64,000 nucleotides of DNA, taken from the NCBI GenBank assembly GCA_038087875.1, contig CM075988.1:9612001-9676000 (forward strand). Direction: 5' to 3'. Both the position numbers and the translations under genes were made by a program. The notes beneath the pieces were generated by a model. That model saw nothing but the letters and a program-made list of their open reading frames with translations. It was not told the DNA's origin and ran no database searches. Within the stretch, counting starts at the first letter, position 1; each line of letters begins with the position of its first letter. Source of the stretch: Malacoraja senta. Lineage: Eukaryota. This document shows, one piece after another, positions 1,528 to 55,700 of this stretch.

Positions 1528-2463
1528 TCTCTCACCCTGGCTATTTTCCCTTTACACAAACCAGCTCACATCCCACCACAGCTCCGTCAACCTGTACAAG
1601 TACGCGGACGACTCAACCATCATAGGATTCATCACCAACAACCAAGAAACTGAATACCGTGCACAGGTCAACCAAGCAGTGACCTGGTGCACAGACCATG
1701 ACCTCTTACTCAATTAATCAAAAACAAAAGAACTTATCATCGACCCAAGGCGCCAGCCATCCCCCAAAACTCCTGTGCTCATTAATGATGAATCCATCTC
1801 CATCACTGACACATTCAAACTCCTTGGAACCCACATCAGCAACAACCTCAAATGGAGGACAAACGCAGACCACATTTATGGGAAAGCCCAGCAAAGACTT
1901 TTCCATCTCCGACAGCTAAGGAAGTTCAGAGTAAGATCTCATCTCATGCTCTGCTTCTATACAGCCATCGTTGAAAGCATCCTCACTTCATCCATCACAG
2001 TCTGGTTCGGCAGTCTCGACTCACTCTCCCGGAATCATCATCGCATCAAGCGCATCATCAACAGAGCATCAAAAATTATTGGCTTACCCCTACCATCCCT
2101 TGAATCACTTTATCACAAACGGTCACTGCACAGAGCCCGCAAGATCATCTCTGATCGTACCCACCCTGCACACTATGCCTTTCAGCTACTGCCCTCTGGG
2201 AGGCGTTACAGGTCAATTGCCTCCAAAACAAGCCGCCTCAAAAACAGTTTCATTCCCACTGCAATTAACATTTTAAACTCTGTACGGTGGGGAATAAGAA
2301 TAAGCATGGCACTTATGTATTATGTAATGTGTCTGTCTGTATGTACATCTATGTTATAAGTTTAATGTTGATGAAATGTTGGAACCTGTACCGAGCTGTA
2401 CTGATAACAAATTCCACCAGCCTGGCTGTGTGGTCATTAAAATATACAATACAATACAATACA
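1528..2463 (+). mobile_element. Rex1/Babar-like LINE, 3' part of RT ORF (frameshifted) plus tail
   Basis: LSPWLFSLYTN...YKYADD (YADD at 1601-1612), FKLLGTHIS, KAQQRLFHLRQLRKF, LLPSGRRYRS...RLKNSF; (aatac)n tail at about 2443-2463. Confidence 0.85.
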
Positions 2464-3875: not shown

Positions 3876-5384
3876 TGATCTCAGCACATTGCATTGAGAA
3901 GCATCCTTGCTCATTCACAAAGCGTTTCACGGTGGCCTCTCAGCTGTGCTGTTATCTTGTGCATTGTCAACTTGCCTGAAATTGAGTGCTTTTTCGACAC
4001 CATCTGCTTTTCCATGTTTTGCAGATTGGCACAATTAAACTCAGATCAAAAGTTTTATTTTGGAGACAAAAAATAATGCAAAGAGATAGATGCATTAAAT
4101 AGTTTGTGGAAGTCAAGGATGCCAACATTGTATTTCAAAGAAAAGGGGCAGATGGTTGTTGGAGGTTATACAGCCACACTTCTCTCCACTTCTCTCTTCC
4201 TTCCTTTTCATCCTCCTCATCTCACGACTTCCTTCTGCCTCCATTGTTTTCACCTCCTTATCATCATACCCTTGCCTAACCGCCTGCCTGTAACGATTAT
4301 TGTGGGTGAAGTTTGTCTTTTGCTGAAGAATCATGCAGATATTACAGACAGATGTCCACATTGGAGCACTGCAAGTTAGGTTTAATTTGAAAAAATCTAA
4401 ATTGCAAGCCGTAGCACTGCAAAATGTTGTATCTGCCCAGTGTTGGATTGCCAAGATTTTATTCTGATGATATTGGACAGGTTGTTGGCTGTGCTTGTTG
4501 CTGGCTGGGCTTATTGTGGGTAGAAGCTAAAATAAGTCTAATCACACAACAATAGATCCCAGACATAGCACAAACTCAAAGAACCAATCTCTTCTGTAAC
4601 CATGAATTATTGTATGCAATCTTCTTAAATAAACACAAAAGGGAAAAAGTATAGAAAATACAACACAGAGTTGCTAGTTACTTCTTCTTAAAATCTGACC
4701 TTTAACGTCTGCACTGCAGGTCTTTCTAAATGAGTGGAGAAAAGCTTGCAAAATCCTTATTGTTCACATCTTCCTCTCAAATATAAACTTGCCACCTCCC
4801 CCAAATCAGGAAACAACACACATTTATCCAGACTGTAAACTAAGACCACTAAGCCTCTATCCTGGCTTTAATTTGACCAACACGCTGCCTCACAATGTGG
4901 AACTACATTCTGCTTTCTTTGTTGTCACACCTACGATAGAGGGCAGAGTCAGGCATGGAGTGCTACAGAGGAAAGGCTCATAAAACATTCTTCAAAAGGA
5001 AATAAACAACAATAGCAACGCTGCTATAGTTCATCTTCAAAAGCCACCGTCCCATTCAGAATCAGCTCTATCTAGCAATCCCTACATGCGTGATTCTCTA
5101 ACAAGAGTAAAATCTATGTGTGAAGCTAAGACAGGATGGTGTATCAAAGAACCTCTCAGCTCATTGTCCTTCTAACAGCTCCTTAAAGGAGTTCTTTGAA
5201 ATACCAATTAATGCCATTGAGTCACCAGTCGCTCTCATTGGGCCCTGGTGTCTGGCTGGGTCCTAGTGTCCAGGTACTTTTTCCTGGCATCATGACTCTC
5301 AGGAGGCACAAGAGGCTGCAGATACAGAATCTGAGGGAAAGACAGAGAGCAGCTGAAGGAGCACAATGGTTCAGGCAGCATCAG

Positions 5385-5850
5385 GTTTACAAGAATTATC
5401 CCAGGAATGAGTGGGTTAACATATGATGAGCGTTTGACGGCACTGGCCCTGTTTAGAAGAATGAGGGGGACATCATTGAAACGTACAGGGTAGTGAAAGG
5501 CTTGGATCGTGCATGTGGAAAGGATGTTTCCACTAGTGGGAGATGCAAGGACTAGAGGTCATAGCCTCAGAATTAAAGGACGTTTCTTTAGGAAGGAGAT
5601 GAGGAGGAATTTCTTTAGTCAGAGGGTGGTGAGTCTATGGAAATGTTTGCCACCGAAAGTTGTGGAGGCCAGGTCAGTGCATATTTTTAAGGCAGAGATA
5701 GATAGATTCTTGATTAGTACGGGTATCTGGGGTTATGGGAGAAGGCAGGAGAATGGGGTTAGGAGGGAGAGATAGATCAGCCATGATTGAATGGCAGAGT
5801 AGACTCGATGGGCCGAATGGCCTAATTCTGCTCCTATCACTTATGACCTT
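5385..5850 (+). mobile_element. CR1 LINE 3' fragment
   Basis: ERMFPLVGDARTRGHSLRIKGRFFRKEMRRNFFSQRVVSLW; 3'UTR ending ttatgacc. Confidence 0.9.
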
Positions 5851-6288
5851 AAGATCTGAGGAGGGAAATGGACAGACGATGTTAAAGGTCGAGACCCTTC
5901 ATCTGGACTGAAAGAGTACAGGGAAGGTAGCCAGTACAAAGAGGTGGGAGTGAACGATGGGGTAAGAGCTCCAACACTGTTACACTACAATCTGTGCCAT
6001 CTAAAGAATTAGGGATGGACATTAAATGCAGGTCTTGAAAGTAATGGCTAAACCGTGAAAAATCAATATATGGAGTCCAACGAAAATTTGGTCATTATTG
6101 CATGGAAATAACAAAAACAATTTTGCCTTCACAAACACAATGGGCCAAAATATTCTTCTTCCGACGCAGTGCCATTCTGTGATTTCTTACGACAAAACTT
6201 TCGGATGCGTTGAAATTATCCTAAACATCTCACAATTTTATTATCGCCATTGATCAGCTCAACTGGCCACAAAGAAACATCAATACCA

Positions 6289-6600: not shown

Positions 6601-6761
6601 CATCATTTTACCCAGGAAATATTTCAAGCTAGAGTTACACTGGGAATCCTCCTAACATGCAATAACACATCAGTCACACATCAGAGGAGGTGGACAATTG
6701 CTGCTGGCAGTCGTTATACACCGATTGTAAAATAGCAGTGCAGGAGCAGTCACCATGTGTA

Positions 6762-7092
6762 CAAAACCATGAGAGGAATAGATCAGGTAAACGCACAATG
6801 CCTCTTGCCCAGAGGAGATAGATTTAAAGTGTGGGGAAAAAGATTTAATAGGAACCTGAGGGGTAACATTTTCACATAAAGGGTGGTGGGTGTATGGAAC
6901 GAGCTGCCAGAGGAAGCGGTTGAGGGAGGTGCAATCACAATGTTTAAGAAACATTTGGACGGGTCATGGATAGGACAGGTTTAGAGGGAAATGGGCCAAA
7001 TGCAGGCAGGTTGGACTAATGTAGATGGAAAATGTTGGCCGGTGTGAGCAAGTTGGGCCGAAGGGCCTGTAAGAATCAATGACTCTATGACC
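6762..7092 (+). mobile_element. CR1 LINE 3' fragment
   Basis: Same ORF2 end and 3'UTR as 880-1206; (gactctat) tail. Confidence 0.85.
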
Positions 7093-19491: not shown

Positions 19492-19691
19492 NNNNNNNNN
19501 NNNNNNNNNNNNNNNNNNNNNNNNNNNNNNNNNNNNNNNNNNNNNNNNNNNNNNNNNNNNNNNNNNNNNNNNNNNNNNNNNNNNNNNNNNNNNNNNNNNN
19601 NNNNNNNNNNNNNNNNNNNNNNNNNNNNNNNNNNNNNNNNNNNNNNNNNNNNNNNNNNNNNNNNNNNNNNNNNNNNNNNNNNNNNNNNNNN
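19492..19691. other. Assembly gap (200 N)
   Basis: Run of N, interrupting a SINE head at about 19410-19491. Confidence 0.99.
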
Positions 19692-36749: not shown

Positions 36750-37520
36750 GGACGACCACCAGGGGCACCATACGATTGGCAGTCTTGCCAACAGTATGTC
36801 TGTTTTTTCATCTTTTCTTGTTATTTTTAGTGTGTTTTGAAAGTTTGTTTTAATTGTCTGTGGTTTGTTTTATGTGGGAGGGGGTTGGCGGAAACGTTTT
36901 TTTCAGTCTCTTACCCTGCCGGAGATGTGATTACTTTCTGGGTCATGTCTCTGGTCGCTCTGTGGCCTAACATCTTGGAGCAGGAGGCCTCGCTCGGGAC
37001 TGAATTTGGGCCCCACCACGGGGCATGAACTTACCATCGGGGCCAATCCCTTGCCTGGGATCGATGCTCCAACCGCGGCCTGCGGACTTTACCATCGAGA
37101 GCTCACAATCTCGGGAGAGACCGTGGATGTCGGGAGCTCCAACGACGCAAAAGGTTGGACGAGCTCCGACCCGGGGTCCAATCGCTCGGCGCGGGGGAGC
37201 TGAGATTCTCCCCCGATGCAATACCTTGATCACCCAGACATGGAGAACCCGAACGCCGCCAGCTAAGGGAGTCAAGATCGTCCCGTCAACGGAAGGCTTG
37301 AGGCCCCTGACCACGGGAGGACAAAGAAGGGAAGAGATTGAACTTTTTTTTCACCTTCCATCACAGTGAGGAATGTGGAGGAGTCATTGTGGTGGATGTG
37401 TATGTTAAAATGTATTTTGTGTGTTCTGTTGCTTTTTATTTGTATGGCTGACTTGGCAAATGAAATTCCTCGTATGTTGCAAAACATACTTGGCTAATAA
37501 AGTATTATTGTATGGTATGA
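36750..37520 (+). mobile_element. GC-rich non-autonomous retroelement
   Basis: Related to 8320-9222; ccttccatcacagtgaggaatg block; LINE-like tail ctaataaag. Confidence 0.6.
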
Positions 37521-38219
37521 CACATCATCTGTTCATTCCCTTCACAGATGCAGCCTGATCTGTTGAGTTCCACCAGCACTTAGTTTTTTACTAAAACTCG
37601 TGATTCGAGACAACAAGGTCAGGAAAGGGAACAGAATGCAAGGGGGTTCATTTCTAAAGGGATTAGAGTGGACAAAATGAAGTGATGCCAAGACACAAAT
37701 AATGCTTGGTTAGTTCACAGAGTTCAGCTACGGTCGTCATGTCATTTAAAAGGAGACCGACAAAATGGTGAAGCTGCAAAGAAGATTGACTAGCCGGTAC
37801 AATAAATGCAAGGGATAGGTATTGGAAAAGGTCACACAGACTGACCTTTCTATTGAGAAAGGAAAGCTGAAGAGGTCAGCTAATAAAGGACAGGTTTTGA
37901 CAGAATGGAACACAGAGAGAATATTTCCACTTCTGAAGAAGACCATAAGTCGGGGACAATGATACAAACTGTCTTTATGAAATCCAAGTAGGATTGAGAG
38001 GAAACATCTTATTTTACTTCGGAGTCACGTGAGTGACTACGTGAAGAAGCCCGTCAGTGCGCCTGCGCGTCATTACGTCAGACGCCTTGACGCAAACGGA
38101 CGTGAGGAGCAGTGCTCCTCGAGTGGTTTGTAGTTTTTCAACTACAAGGTAAGTAAAAACTTTTTTACAGGTTTTCCAGGTCCGTTTACTGTGGGTCTAT
38201 GGCGATTTTTTCCACAGAC

Positions 38220-39035
38220 GCCATGGGAAAAAACGGACAGGGGGAAGAGGCGAGCGACATAGCCGACAGAAGTCGGGAAAGTCGGGAGTCCGCGGTTAGA
38301 GACCAACCGCCTCTAAACCCCGGTACAGTCGCCAGCGGTGAGCATAGCGACTGTGGACCTGGGGCTGGTGAAAACACAGTCAGTGCCTGTCGGGCAAAAG
38401 ACAAAGTTTAAATCCCAACGGAGGGAGTTCCAGGCAATGAAGAAGCTCCAGGGCTAGGTACTGCTTTCGAGCGTATTGCCCAAATAGAAGCCTTTTTCAT
38501 AGGTTGTTGGAGCAAAGGTTCACTCAGGAAGGAGTGTACTGTAATCCAAGCTGCAGGAGCAGCTTAACAGCACCTGGCTCAGGGCTGATGGAATGCACCC
38601 TCAGGAATGAGGAGCGTGCTACGGGTCATGAGATTTCAGACCCCGACTCTGACGGTGAGGCTGTACAAGGCGATGAAATGCAGCTGCCAGATGTTCCAAC
38701 CCTGGTAGTAGGATTCGCTGCCCCGTCAGGGTCAGGAGAGCCATTAGGAAGAACTGGCCTCCTTAATAAATTACTTGGTTTACCATTAGCTGGAACAGCA
38801 TGAAATGGATGAGACTGCAAGAGTATCTGGAATCAGTTGCAGAGAATATTAAAGCTGCTGGGTTCTGGAATAACTGCTTTTACCAGAATAGCAGGTAACA
38901 ACCAAAAGATGACGAAGTTGCATCAGCAAGCACTGGGGTCGCTCATCAACGCAGGGACGTAGTTGGCGGCCTGCAGCGGGAGCAAGATCCAGTGGGCGTG
39001 CTTCCGGGAGAACCCAGGAATCTTAGGGTACTGAA
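38220..39035 (+). pseudogene. DIRS gag-like ORF1 remnant
   Basis: Broken hydrophilic ORFs between the left terminus and pol; called mainly by position. Confidence 0.5.
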
Positions 39036-40935
39036 ATGACTCAAGAGGTAGGTGGACCTGGTTCTCATGGGAACATACTAACTGGATTAAGTCCAAAAGT
39101 TGGAGGCAGGTTACATTTCTTCTATAATAATTGGAAGAAAATTACTTCAGATGTGGTAATCCTGAATAATATACAAGGATTTCGAATTGAATTCAATCCA
39201 AATTATGATTTGCCTGTTCAGCATGTTCCTAGCCGAACTCTGCACTTTGTACAAAAAGAAGTGATGGAGGTTCAGGTTGCAATTGAAACCCTATATAAAA
39301 AAAGGGGTTATTGAAAAATCAGTCTACCAAAGTCACCAATTTGTGTCAAAAATATTCCCTCGATCAAAAAAGGATGGAGGATGTAGGATTCTTGTAGATT
39401 TGATAAATCTGAATCCTTTTGTGCAATTTAGACATTTTAAAATGGAAACATTTGTGACTGCCAAACAGCTTATTTCAGAAGCATGTTATATGGCAACTAT
39501 AGACTTGAAAGATGCGTATTATTCAGTGTCTGTTCATTCAGAAGATAGGAAGTATCTTAAATTTAAATGGATGAACCAGTTGTGGCAGTTCAAAGCTCTG
39601 CCTAATGGGTTAATATCTGCACTCAGAATATTCACAAAAATTGTAAAAACCAATTCTGGGCTTGCTGAGTAGCCAGGGGCATGTACTAATGGCATATTTG
39701 GATGATGTCTTGATTATAGGAAAGACAAAACAGTCAACAGAAGTATCTGTTGCAGTTGTGAAATCAACTTTTGAAAAGTTGGGGTTTCTAATTCATCCAC
39801 AGAAATCTAGGTTAACACCATGTACCTCTATTAATTATTTGGGGTTCACAATTGATTCAGTCCAAATGAATATCACTTTGCCCAGGGAAAAGGGTGGATT
39901 TGATTAAAGATTGCAGTAATCTCCTAAACAAGCAAAAACCTTCAATTAGACAGGTGGCTCGTGTACTGGGAAAATTAGTAGCAGCATTCCCAGCAGTCCA
40001 ATTTGGACCATTACATTATCAACAGCTGCAGAGACTTAAAGAACAGGCACCGAGAATGCATGTTGGTCATTTTGATAGAACCATGCAACTAACAACAAAT
40101 GCTGTTTCTGGTCTGCAGTGGTGGATTCTACATGTCTCAAGCAGTTCCAGCAAAGTGCTGATTGAACAACCTTCCATGATATTACAAACTGATGCCAGTG
40201 CACCAGGATGGGGTGCAACTGACTTAACATCTAGCTGAGGAGGCAGATGGAATCAGGAAGAGTCATTGTTACTGCAGACATGGGGAATTAACTATTTGGA
40301 GCTTCTAGGATGTTTCTATGGGCTCCAAGCTTATTGTTCTAACACAACTAATAAGCATGTTCAAGTTCAAATTGATAACACAACAGTAGTTGTTTATATT
40401 AATGATATGGAATTAAGTCGGTGTCTTGTGACAAAATGGTTAATCAACTTTGGGCTTGGTGTATTGAAAAGAACATTTGGATTTCAGCTATCTATCTACC
40501 AGGTAGAATGAACGATAGCAGACACCAAGTCACGAAAAGTTCCATGATAATAAAGAATGGATGTTGAATCAAGAGGTATTCAATGATATAGTCATCAGAT
40601 TTGGAATGACCGACATCGACTTGAATCATCAGCTATCGAGATATGTCTCATGGAAACCAGATCCAGGAGCAGTGGCGATTGATGCTTTCTCGCTACATTG
40701 GGGTGGTATGTTTTCATATATATTTCCACCTTTCTGCCTCATAAGCCAATGTTTGCTTAAAATCAGGCAAGATGCTGCTTCAAGGGTATTGGTAGTACCA
40801 GATTGGCCTACACAGCCATGGTATCCGTTGATATTAGAATTAACAACACAAATGTTGATGAAAGTCCCAAAAAAGAGTAATTTATTGCTGCTCCCTGTAC
40901 AGGGGAACAACATCCATTATATGATCGTTTGGATT
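39036..40935 (+). pseudogene. DIRS pol: reverse transcriptase, RNase H and Dam-like methyltransferase domain (frameshifted)
   Basis: VGGRLHFFYNNWKKITSD; KKDGGCRILVDL; IDLKDAYYSV; ALPNG; AYLDD; YLG; LQTDAS..GWG; INYLEL; IDNTT; DAFSLHW..YIFPPF; VVPDWPTQPWYP. Confidence 0.92.
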
Positions 40936-40957
40936 TGTTGATTTGCAGGTTTTAAGA

Positions 40958-41920
40958 ATGCCTTTTCTGGGACGAGGACTGTCTGAGCATACTGTGGACA
41001 TGCTTACTGCAGCCTGGAGGAAGAGCACTCAAAAACAGTACCTTTCTTATATTAAGAAATGGGAAAAGTTCTGGGTACAAAAGAATGTGCAATAAAGTAC
41101 TGCAGATATTTCAAATGTTTAGAATTTCTGTCAAAACTTTATTATGATGAAGGTCTGAGTTGTAGTGCAATTAATTCAGCCAGAAGTGCATTGTCCTCAT
41201 ATTTGGTTCTGGATTCAGAAAGAAACTCAATTGGGTCACACCCAATTGTTTCCAGACTAATGAAAGGAATCTTTAATTCCAAACCACCGAAACCTAGGTA
41301 CGTGACAATCTGGGATGTAAGTGTGGTACTGAAACTACTTCGTGATGGTTATCAAGTGTGTCTTTACCTTTGGTCAAGCTCAGTATGAAAGTATTCATGT
41401 TTATGGCATGAGTGACAGCACAACGAGTGCAAACACTTGGAAAATTACAAATAGATAGTATGGAAGTAACTGAAGACAAGGTTACATTCTATATCTATGA
41501 CCTAATAAAGCAAATTAGGCCAGGTGTGACAGGATTTAAAATTATGCTGGCAGCATATCCAAATGATCCATGTCTTTGTATTAAGACATATTTATTACAA
41601 TACATTGAGGTCACAAAGAATTTGAGAATACGGAAACTGGGTTTTTGATCACACACAAGAAACCACACAAGAGAGTTTCAATACAGACTATTTCCAGATG
41701 GATAAAAGAAGTCTTAACAGCTGCTGGTATTAACACTTATGTTTTTACGTCTCACTCGACTAGGGCAGCAGAAATGTCGGCGGCCAGGGCAAAAGACGGC
41801 CCCGTCGACCATATCCTCGCAGCCGCCGGGTGGTCCAATGAGTTGATGTTTCAACATTTTTACCATCGGCCTATTGTTAATGCGGGGTTGTTTGCAGAAA
41901 CTATTTTAAGTTCTGTGTAA
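40958..41920 (+). pseudogene. DIRS tyrosine recombinase (frameshifted)
   Basis: AINSARSALS, HPIVSRLMKGIFNSKPPKPRY..WDV, TAQRVQT, QTISRWIK, HSTRAA, AAGWS..FQHFY (catalytic R-HxxR-W-Y pattern). Confidence 0.9.
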
Positions 41921-42984
41921 ATTCCTCTGGTTTAAAGGGGATCTGATTCATTTCATTCTTGAAATGAATTACTGCATTTGTGGTACAAATGTTATTATGA
42001 ATGCATGATTGATTATTCTCGTTCCGAGTCAATCTATGCAGTGAGAAGCCGGGATTGATCCACGGCATGAAATCACAAAGCTTTAAAATCTTCACGTAGT
42101 CACTCACGTGACTCCGAAGTAAAATAGTAAGATTAAACGAGAACTTACCTAAGTTTGAAGTTTGATCTTTATTTTATGAGGAGTTACGTAGGTGATTACG
42201 TGCCCGCCACGACCCTACCCTCTATCATAAAGGTCAGATGGAAGTTCTTGTATTACTCGTTTTAGTATGAGACTATATTACTTCGGTTCTTGTTTTTTGT
42301 GATTTCACACCGCTGCTTTGAAGATTGACGCGCAGGCGCACTGACGGGCTTCTTCACGTAATCACCTACGTAACTCCTCATAAAATAAAGATCAAACTTC
42401 AAACTTAGGTAAGTTCTCGTTTAATCTTACTAATCCAAAGCAGTGGGGAGACTATGAAACACGCTCCCAGAGGGAGTGTCTGGAGTGGTTGGGGAGAGTT
42501 GGACAAGTATTTGAGGCAGAAGGATGCTGACCGATTTAGGCAATGAAGGGCAGGAGTGGATTTGAATGGAGCGTGATAGTCAGCATGGATTAAATGGGCC
42601 AAATGGCCTGTTTCTCCGCTATTCAGTGTAGTGGTATGTACATTCAAAAGCGTTCTAATGATAGGAGCTATTCTGAAAAGAAACTATGACATATTTGTTA
42701 GTGAAAAAATAAATTAAAAAATAGTTACCCAAGCTAAATGACTATCCACTGCTTATACTAATTAAATGGTTAAAGAAAAATGTCAAGCTTCCATATAATA
42801 AATTCATTCAATTATAATTTAATATTAAATTGCATTGCACCTTTATGCTTCTTGGCTTCACATAAAATGTCACAATATAATTTCTTAAGCGTTGAAACGG
42901 CAAGAAGACTAGTTATGTGGGAACAAATTCTCTAAAAGCTTCCAACCACCACACACTCTTTTCAAGAGAAAGAATCCGAGAGCC

Positions 42985-43203
42985 ATTGAGCCATAAAGCA
43001 CAGAAGCATGCCCTTCAGCCCAACTTGTCCATGCCAACCAAGATGGACCCATCTAAGCAGTCCCATTTGCCCTCATTTGGCCCACATCCCTTTAAACCTT
43101 TCCTGCCAATGTACCTGTCCAAATGTCTTTTAAATGTTGTAATTGCGCCTCCCTAATTTATTTATTCTGGCAGCTCATTCTATACACCCACCACCTGCTG
43201 TGT
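42985..43203 (-). mobile_element. CR1 3' fragment
   Basis: Reverse copy of the CR1 ORF2 end and 3'UTR. Confidence 0.8.
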
Positions 43204-43585
43204 ATAAAATCATGAGAGGAATAGATTGTGTCGATGCACAGAGTCTCTTGTCCAGAGTCGAGGAATCGAGAACCAGAGGAGATAGGTTTAAGGTGAAGGG
43301 GAAAGATTTGATAGGAATCTGAGGGGTAACCTTTTTACACAAAGGGTGGTGGTTGTATGAAATGAGCTGCCAGAGGATGTAGTTGAGACAGGGTCAATTG
43401 CAACATTTAAGAAACAATTAAACAGGTACATGGATAGGACAGGTTTAGAGGGATATGGGTTAAACGCAGGCAGGTGGGTCTAGCTTAGATGGGACATGTT
43501 GGTCGGTGTGGAAACATTAGGGTGAAGGGCCTGTTTCCATGCTGTGAGACTGTGCTGTGACACTGTGACTCTGTGACTCTGTGAC
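43204..43585 (+). mobile_element. CR1 3' fragment
   Basis: Forward ORF2 end and 3'UTR with (gactctgt)n tail. Confidence 0.85.
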
Positions 43586-54561: not shown

Positions 54562-55700
54562 GCGAAGCCGTGCTGCAAGCGGAGTCTCGGATACGCCACA
54601 GAGTCCTGGTGGGAGTAGTGACTCGGACAAGAGCTGGTCTGGGAATCTTCCCAAATCCCCAAGGCCAAGGGGAAGGAGAGGCGCAGGCTGGTCCAGGAGG
54701 AAGTGAGGGCAGCGGTGGAGGAGGAGAGGTCTACCAGAGCGGTTGGCTTGAGGTAGCAGGGGGCCTGGACAAGGTGGGAGCAGGCCATGGACTGAAAAGT
54801 CACATGGACTGAGCTCTGGCAGGCTGAACCACAGTGCATTAAGTTCCTGGTCCAGGCAGTGTACGATGTCCTGCCCAGACCATCGAACCTCTTCATCTGG
54901 GGCAAAGCGGAAGTTCTGGATTGCCCGCAATGCTCAGGCAAGGGGATGTTGGAACACATCCTGAGCTGCTGCCAAAGGCTCTTGGGCAGGGCCGGTACAC
55001 CTGGCGTCACGACCAGGTTCTTAAACCCATTGCAGAAGCCATCAGCATGGGATTCAGCAGCTGCAGACGAGCAGGCCCCACCACCCAGATGATCACCTTC
55101 ATGAAGGCTGGAGTGCAGCTGCCAAGAACCACAGCAGCCAGGAATCAGTCAGGAATCCTGGCGACTGCGCAGGACTGGCAGCTTTCTGTAGACCTGGTGG
55201 AACAGCTGAAGTTCCCACAGCACATTGCCACGACCACCCTGAGACCAGACATCCTCCTGGTCTCAGAGGCGACCAAAAACATAGTCTTGTTGAACTGTTT
55301 GGAGGACAGTTTGGAGGAGGCCCACGAGAGGAAGATGACCAAGTACGAAGAGCTGTTCATAGACTGCCGTAAGCAGGGCTGGAAGGCAAGGTGTATGCCC
55401 ATCGAGGTTGGCTGCAGAGGTTTTGCAGGTCAATCGCTCTACAAAGCCTTGAGTGCACTGGGCATCAATGGAATGGAGAGAAGACCCATCATGAACACCA
55501 CAGAGGCAGCGGAGAAGGCCTCAAGATGGCTCTGGATCAGGAGAGGAGGTCCATGGGGAGGAGCGAATGCCACCTGGACACAAGTCGTGGTCTGATCAAC
55601 CACGGCTGGGTCGCCTGGGTGAGGGTATCTGATGTTGAAAGACCAGAAACACTCAATGACCCCCAGGTTACATCACTGGTGATGTGTTCAGGAACATCTA
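54562..55700 (+). mobile_element. Hero/NeSL-like LINE 3' fragment with restriction-like endonuclease
   Basis: VYDVLPRPSNL, CPQC..EHILSCC, GRYTWRHDQVL, LRPDI, EAHERK..KY, IEVGCRGF; frameshifted. Confidence 0.88.

Follow-up and report, generated by a model that had tools for sequence, protein, structure and literature searches.

What is known of DIRS biology is based largely on one slime-mould system. The accessible sections of PMC7192593 report, for DIRS-1 of Dictyostelium discoideum, that the internal complementary region (ICR) is required to complete the cycle, that the reverse transcriptase (RT) acts in trans, that endogenous proteins can integrate isolated DIRS-1 cDNA, and that the cDNA is mostly linear and single-stranded, with a circle junction that could not be amplified. 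A truncated construct failed to complete transposition (section 21 of the same paper), in an assay blind to other proteins acting in trans. Recombination of a circle junction with the target is the model described in the available parts of PMC7192593 and PMC3266345. Members with damaged or missing enzymes are familiar as well: TOC1 of Chlamydomonas is a non-autonomous element of the DIRS order (PMC9940879, in part), and excerpts of PMC9210276 describe many Xenopus DIRS families as degenerate and call the role of the methylase domain unknown, while a test of DIRS methylase activity is given as negative in the accessible text of bioRxiv 10.64898/2026.05.21.726589. Here we describe a DIRS1-like element at 38010-42432 of a 64,000-nucleotide stretch of Malacoraja senta (assembly GCA_038087875.1, contig CM075988.1, positions 9,612,001 to 9,676,000 of the forward strand; hereafter the window). 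It is most probably a recent insertion belonging to a high-copy, non-autonomous DIRS1-like retrotransposon family that is dead in at least its recombinase and its methylase.

Judged from its sequence, the element is a DIRS1-like retrotransposon, because it holds collinear remnants of RT, RNase H, methylase and tyrosine recombinase (YR). The features found are inverted terminal repeats (ITRs) with an extension, two overlapping ICRs, a junction motif, RT and RNase H, a Dam-like domain, and a YR instead of a DDE integrase. A preliminary description of this DNA had proposed the DIRS1 ITR/ICR architecture and integration at a TA junction, and the termini, the order of RT, RNase H, methylase and YR, and the empty site described below agree with it. 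Its more specific statements, that the two ICR halves are exact reverse complements of the left and right termini, that 38038-38072 and 42326-42360 are inverted repeats, and that the ICR halves overlap by TA, proved correct to the letter (38/38, 78/78 and 35/35; Table 1). The shared TA at 42125-42126 is the circle-junction sequence, and the reverse complement of the ICR region reads right end, TA, left end. For comparison, when the mononucleotides of the element were shuffled 200 times, the longest exact inverted matches averaged 12.8 nt and reached 24 nt at most. By blastn the inverted match between 38009-38072 and 42388-42326 is 89% overall. The 3' 381 nt of the element fold with a z of -17.5, and the right ICR lies 152 nt from the right terminus, forming a strong hairpin. 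Split direct repeats of the Ngaro-like or PAT-like kind were not found in the element; the longest internal direct repeat (27 nt, 85%) results from the overlap of ICR and ITR.

Two further observations concern the ends. Between the ICR and the right ITR, at 42272-42286, stands a second copy of the circle-junction sequence (14/15), which may be due to chance or be an additional recombinase site. Many related contigs lack 2 nt at mirrored places of the ICR and the right terminus (42150-42151 and 42406-42407), both of which the window copy keeps; this fits a concerted change of ICR and terminus, and we give it little weight because the contigs can be aligned to both arms and the ends are common to related families.

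The coding part is badly broken. Thirteen pieces of the element were scanned against Pfam, with RT found in two and phage integrase in the last. Database protein P0003 aligns along 39045-40952 (332/633 identical), and P0121, P0122 and P0024 align collinearly along 40967-41914. The RT motif YLDD (39695-39706) and the YR motif HSTR (41753-41764) are present, and the acidic residues of the RNase H motif were identified by eye. The gag region has no Pfam match, its 49-aa piece has no homolog and its Atlas matches reach just 0.81; its fragmented open reading frames (ORFs) lie where ORF1 is expected. Nor does the methyltransferase piece of the window match Pfam on its own, and it was recognised from 40540-40900, which aligns at 39-48% with the Dam region of four homologs. 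Against the homologs we count frameshifts near 39297, 39640 and 39890 in the RT part; a stop at 40236 and frameshifts near 40407 and 40511 in the connection and RNase H part; a frameshift at about 40536 at the start of the methyltransferase, a 15-nt in-frame loss at about 40620 that removes five residues, the D-x-F-A-S motif (kept in 72 of the 75 homologs that span the site), and a probable frameshift near 40899 based on the homolog alignment alone; and stops at 41093 and 41409 with frameshifts near 41118, 41344 and 41635 in the YR. The heavily frameshifted ORFs of the preliminary description are thus confirmed: pol and YR have 10 frameshifts between them, in addition to 3 stops and an in-frame loss of 15 nt, and one further indel in the 5' ORF region was detected by reads alone. 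Programmed frameshifting was rejected because the homologs run continuous across each break: successive YR pieces are adjacent in one protein in 81/81, 69/69 and 41/41 homologs (the first and last of these being the two YR frameshifts later found in other copies), and the pol pieces in 73/73. With neither the pol nor the YR frame open, this copy is not an autonomous DIRS.

Table 1. Coordinates of the element, its parts and flanks, and of other features in the window
Feature	Position	Strand	Basis or remark
Whole DIRS1-like element	38010..42432	+	4423 nt, TA at each end; ends set by exact ICR matches
Left terminus, pairs with left ICR	38010..38047	+	38/38 reverse complement of 42089-42126
Left ITR, divergent part (28 nt)	38010..38037	+	Partial inverted match to ~42361-42387
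Left ITR, conserved part (35 nt)	38038..38072	+	35/35 inverted match to 42326-42360
Probable gag-like ORF1 remnant	38220..38962	+	Assigned by position alone; broken, indel 38747 (seen in reads)
Reverse transcriptase part of pol	39045..39892	+	Pfam RVT_1 E 3.3e-6 and 4.2e-10, two pieces; homologs collinear
RT connection and RNase H part of pol	39893..40535	+	Collinear with homologs having weak RT_RNaseH matches; RVT_3 E 0.047
Dam-like methyltransferase domain remnant	40540..40952	+	Corresponds to Pfam Dam domain of P0030, P0034, P0044, P0008
Tyrosine recombinase (YR) ORF remnant	40967..41917	+	Pfam Phage_integrase E 2e-5; collinear with P0121, P0122, P0024
Left ICR (38 nt)	42089..42126	+	Exact inverted match to left terminus
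Right ICR (78 nt)	42125..42202	+	78/78 reverse complement of right terminus 42355-42432
Right ITR, conserved part	42326..42360	+	35/35 with left ITR
Divergent right ITR (to ~42387) and right extension (~45 nt)	42361..42432	+	Nomenclature of PMC3266345, section 10 (available part)
Left flank, old CR1 3' region, interrupted	37898..38009	+	Weak alone; joined to right flank in empty-site contig
Right flank, remainder of old CR1 3' end	42433..42622	+	Shuffle test against CR1 references
CR1-type ORF2, uninterrupted, 1002 codons	44747-47755	-	Endonuclease and RT domains
213-codon ORF with ALKBH8_N domain	1718-2359	+	E 4.5e-12; downstream of RT-like stretch
250-codon ORF	54843-55595	+	No Pfam match

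Contigs from four public sequencing runs (X1, X4, X6 and X12; 24 runs were found) were aligned to the window; X12 was the one run taken from organisms D-K, where the shares were 0.08-0.10. X1 is from organism A, possibly the window's own source, and hence is not independent. The alignment data used here are the best supported or longest: of the 67 rows for indels they comprise 12, of the 680 for substitutions 40, and of about 114,000 records 31. Both junctions of the element lie at TA (38010-38011 and 42431-42432), and X1 records 6 and 7 cover both with 0 differences. Because the depth at the junctions is 22.6 and 28.5, compared to 10.1 in a neighbouring unique X1 contig, these records suggest that the insertion is on both haplotypes. 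The empty site that the preliminary description had proposed to look for was found in record 15 of X12 (organism G), a contig of 1125 nt that joins 37489-38009 to 42431-43000 with no letters between and a single TA, and that differs from the window flanks at 63 of 1091 letters (5.8%). The target was therefore a TA within an old CR1 3' end, and the insertion most likely took place once the A and G lineages had separated. Recombination of a TA circle junction with a genomic TA would account for what is seen here, a TA bounding the element on each side and a single TA in the unfilled target; in a single copy, a 2-nt core and a 3-nt core with one mismatch are indistinguishable. The earlier claim of TA junctions without a target-site duplication accordingly stands as to the TA, while its second half is correct solely in the DIRS sense, where one TA comes from the circle junction and the other from the target.

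The flanks had also been said to rejoin into an old CR1 3' end, which is borne out by the right flank, whose score against CR1 3' ends is reached by 0 of 100 shuffles for 4 of 5 references, and by the contiguity of the flanks when aligned to the CR1 copy at 6750-7075 (reference 21-123, then 129-321). The left flank is weak by itself: its nucleotide matches to CR1 are non-significant against all 5 references, and one of its translations scores higher than 200 of 200 shuffles. Position 37509 is joined to 42123 in four X12 contigs and one X1 contig with a short side of 25 letters, and these joints may come from other DIRS copies that entered the AT-rich tail of a long interspersed nuclear element (LINE) in the reverse orientation.

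The family is plainly very abundant in the X1 reads, with 56,341 contigs aligned. Their summed depth, which is not a copy number, ranges from 1.4e5 to 9e5 across the body and peaks at 1.9e6 in the ICR; in unique flank bins it is 10-23. X4 and X6 present a different picture: the unique flank bins have a depth of 0 and most of the body one of 4-40, the listed contigs depart from the window at 69 of 4002 letters (1.7%, from 14 of the 16 listed records, the two diverged ones of ~88-90% identity being excluded), and they have the X1 majority letters at the listed near-fixed sites. For these three reasons we read them as likely samples of other family copies and not of this locus. In X12 the depth is concentrated heavily at the ends (1.7e6 at 41975-42388, 0-18,000 in the body), which suggests that other families or short derivatives share these ends, related X12 elements having ends in common more than genes; in X6, too, the depth at 41975-42388 is far above that of the body. 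In X1, a few loose ends at 40536 and 41408 are a hint of copies that have diverged further. The joints 39077-42165, 40321-40660 and 42224-42378 resemble internally deleted copies and are weak, with short sides of <30 letters. A 25-nt ICR pattern had 0 matches in metagenome contigs, in which P0001 found 3 distant loci at 29-35% identity, and P0003 had no match in viral contigs.

Whether the same frameshifts occur in other copies, the test that the preliminary description had put forward, was read from contigs bridging a lesion with a threshold of 31 letters on each side, and the outcome is divided. Four lesions are common to other copies, namely the frameshifts at about 40536, 41118 and 41635 and the 15-nt loss from the methylase motif, and three of them are found in both X4 and X6. 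The 41118 frameshift is crossed with 0 gap letters by X4 record 22 (40898-41301) and X6 record 29 (41016-41220), the 41635 frameshift by X4 record 23 (0 gaps) and X6 record 30 (1 gap, the 41344 indel), and the 40536 frameshift together with the 15-nt loss by X6 record 28 (2 gap letters, both at 40511); the 15-nt loss is also in X4 record 20 (4 gap letters, net 0). All of these bridging contigs are 98-99% identical to the window copy. The break at about 40899 is bridged by just 28 letters on one side, below the threshold. On the other hand, the indels at 38747, 39297, 39636, 40407, 40511 and 41344 are not shared: among the best 12 of 67 indel rows, other copies differ from the window at all six in X1 and X6, and at all but 39636 in X4. 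As many other copies lack these six, some of the decay is specific to this copy or to its small sub-branch. The tally of shared and unshared lesions covers neither the frameshift at about 39890 nor the stops at 40236, 41093 and 41409. Another frameshifted branch that amplified is marked by the loss of 4 nt at 39982, which the window does not have and which 9 X1 contigs carry with a summed depth of 50,691.

The ends of the element tell the same history from another side. Decay in place at 1.7% would be expected to leave 4.9 changes in the 284 terminal and ICR bases, and there are 0 (P = 0.0075), so that most of the divergence is older than the last insertion; the upper bound on in-place divergence is ~1.1%. 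CpG decay accounts for 3 of 13 T/A-versus-C/G differences, an unclear signal, and the 13 listed coding differences, synonymous versus nonsynonymous 5 to 8, are too few and too selected for use.

The preliminary description had suggested a lineage mobilised in trans after its ORFs decayed, and in substance this stands on the four shared lesions, the six unshared indels being the part that does not follow it. Since the amplified family has frameshifts in its own recombinase, that enzyme would have been supplied in trans. Under the published DIRS model, the element would be transcribed and then reverse-transcribed, its ends would be rebuilt on the ICR, and a tyrosine recombinase would join the TA circle junction to a genomic TA; the circular intermediate is taken over from that model by analogy. 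A short contig with the junction sequence may stem from the ICR as well as from a circle. For the present family, we infer that the recombinase came from a related intact DIRS and that, for the sub-branch of this copy, RT was probably provided in trans as well. Every cycle would copy the ends anew from the ICR, which would keep them perfect, and coding lesions would be inherited and accumulate.

Several points weigh against this reading. The sharing of lesions is seen in short contigs that each cover part of a copy; the records displayed are the best supported or longest, and X1's own fraction at the shared sites lies outside them. X4 and X6 are not necessarily other host species and may be trace DNA or RNA. 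Six indels are not common to other copies, and at least one change, the loss of a CpG at 39930, seems peculiar to this locus. The test of the perfect ends takes the rate to be uniform, and it is applied to ends that were delimited by their exact match in the first place. Finally, no intact partner was found among the homologs, where the best long RT is 72-74% identical to the RT piece (P0001 and P0002) and the best YR 68% (P0123 and P0124, 63-68%); the named matches, from Lineus longissimus, Dendronephthya gigantea and Paramuricea clavata, are 48-53% identical. By these identities, none of these proteins is close enough to be the helper element.

A more specific version, which we put forward tentatively, is that the dominant source is semi-autonomous, with RT-RNase H in frame, a stop at the RNase H/methylase boundary and a dead recombinase. 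The reason for considering it is that the RT/RNase H frameshifts that could be scored are shared in 0/4 cases versus 4/5 of the methylase/recombinase lesions (one-sided Fisher p = 0.04, post hoc), and that the shared frameshift at about 40536 lies at the domain boundary. Such a source, if it exists, could make its own cDNA and borrow integration alone from a DIRS family recognising the same ends.

Against a family mobilised in trans stands the history of an ordinary autonomous DIRS, intact at insertion and decayed afterwards at this site, with ends that stayed matched by chance or through inverted-repeat conversion. The six unshared indels, some substitutions that other copies lack and the seemingly private change at 39930 are in its favour, and the hairpin between right ICR and right terminus could permit local conversion. 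We nevertheless regard it as unlikely, as other copies have four of the lesions in their contigs (three are found in each of the two low-depth runs), the left terminus has its partner 4 kb distant, and the end bases are free of the changes expected from such decay. Shared lesions could also have spread without transposition, by segmental duplication or by gene conversion between copies, and no contig is long enough to connect a lesion with a flank. This is highly unlikely, however, given that the flanks of this copy are at single-copy depth, that it has its own clean TA empty site, and that its X1 junction contigs stop 21-25 nt inside the element, which is expected if the same ends have very many flanks.

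It is scarcely credible that the lesions are assembly errors. The breaks at 39297, 39640, 40536 and 41118 do lie in short homopolymer runs, and the copy's own internal contigs are not among the records listed, yet the shared lesions recur in independent sequencing runs, other lesions are 2-, 4- or 15-nt events or stops, and a CR1 ORF2 runs uninterrupted through 1002 codons 2.3 kb away. That ORF is a young LINE copy and served as the assembly-quality check. Duplication of a TA target site by a Tc1/mariner-like DNA transposon would likewise give an insertion bounded by TA and an empty site with a single TA, but the probability of this is practically nil: the 13 element pieces hold no transposase match, the inverted repeat lacks symmetry and has an extension on the right, the ICR itself contains TA, and the coding content (RT and YR) refutes it.

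Elsewhere in the window, two CR1 3' ends stand inverted at 43059-43481, with 150-nt arms at 75%. The ORF at 1718-2359 is probably the end of another LINE. By eye, the ORF at 54843-55595 looks like the restriction-like endonuclease end of a site-specific LINE. A scaffold gap of 200 N lies at 19492-19691, far from the DIRS element.

A literature search on DIRS in cartilaginous fish and on semi- or non-autonomous DIRS found no paper on this family by title or start of abstract, and the accessible part of PMC8498967 contains nothing further on non-autonomous DIRS. The family may already be catalogued, since Repbase, subscription journals and supplements lay outside the search. The element class and its non-autonomous members are already known, so the gain is incremental. 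Nonetheless, an abundant animal family that spreads after the loss of recombinase and methylase is a natural experiment on action in trans and on the role of the methylase, and the locus, known both filled and empty, is a clean case of a 2-nt TA junction. A semi-autonomous source, if true, would be natural evidence for recombinase action in trans on a large scale and would mean that the DIRS methylase is dispensable in cis.

TOC1 has a partner, TOC3, and PAT-type ends. It resembles the present element in being a tyrosine-recombinase retrotransposon that moves without working enzymes of its own (PMC9940879, available part); unlike TOC1, the element described here is near full length, with remnants of all pol and YR domains and with ITR/ICR ends. 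The closest elements in end geometry are the molluscan LgDIRS1, LgDIRS3 and AcaDIRS1/2 covered by Piednoel et al. 2011 (PMC3266345). The order of left ITR, left ICR, right ICR, right ITR and right extension (lITR-lICR-rICR-rITR-rE) is common to the DIRS1-like elements of that paper and to ours, as are the YLDD and HSTR motifs and the succession RT, RNase H, methyltransferase and then YR. The conserved ITR is 35 nt here and 31-36 nt in the molluscan elements, the ICR 38+78 against 39-86, 42-86 and 45-88, and the right extension ~45 nt against 48-49. With 4423 nt the element is among the shorter ones of its kind (3974-6283 according to the text of that paper), and all of its ORFs are broken. The vertebrate DIRS1-like elements of Table 3 differ from it in their conserved ITRs of 102-148 nt. 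The junction overlap of 2 nt (TA) also departs from the usual 3 nt (NTT); Table 3 gives 2-nt junctions for AmDIRS1 (CG) and BfDIRS2 (AA), and none is TA. With DIRS-1 of Dictyostelium discoideum, as presented in the available sections of PMC7192593, the element shares an ICR complementary to both ends; DIRS-1 is autonomous, whereas here a natural family with a broken recombinase appears to have been amplified.

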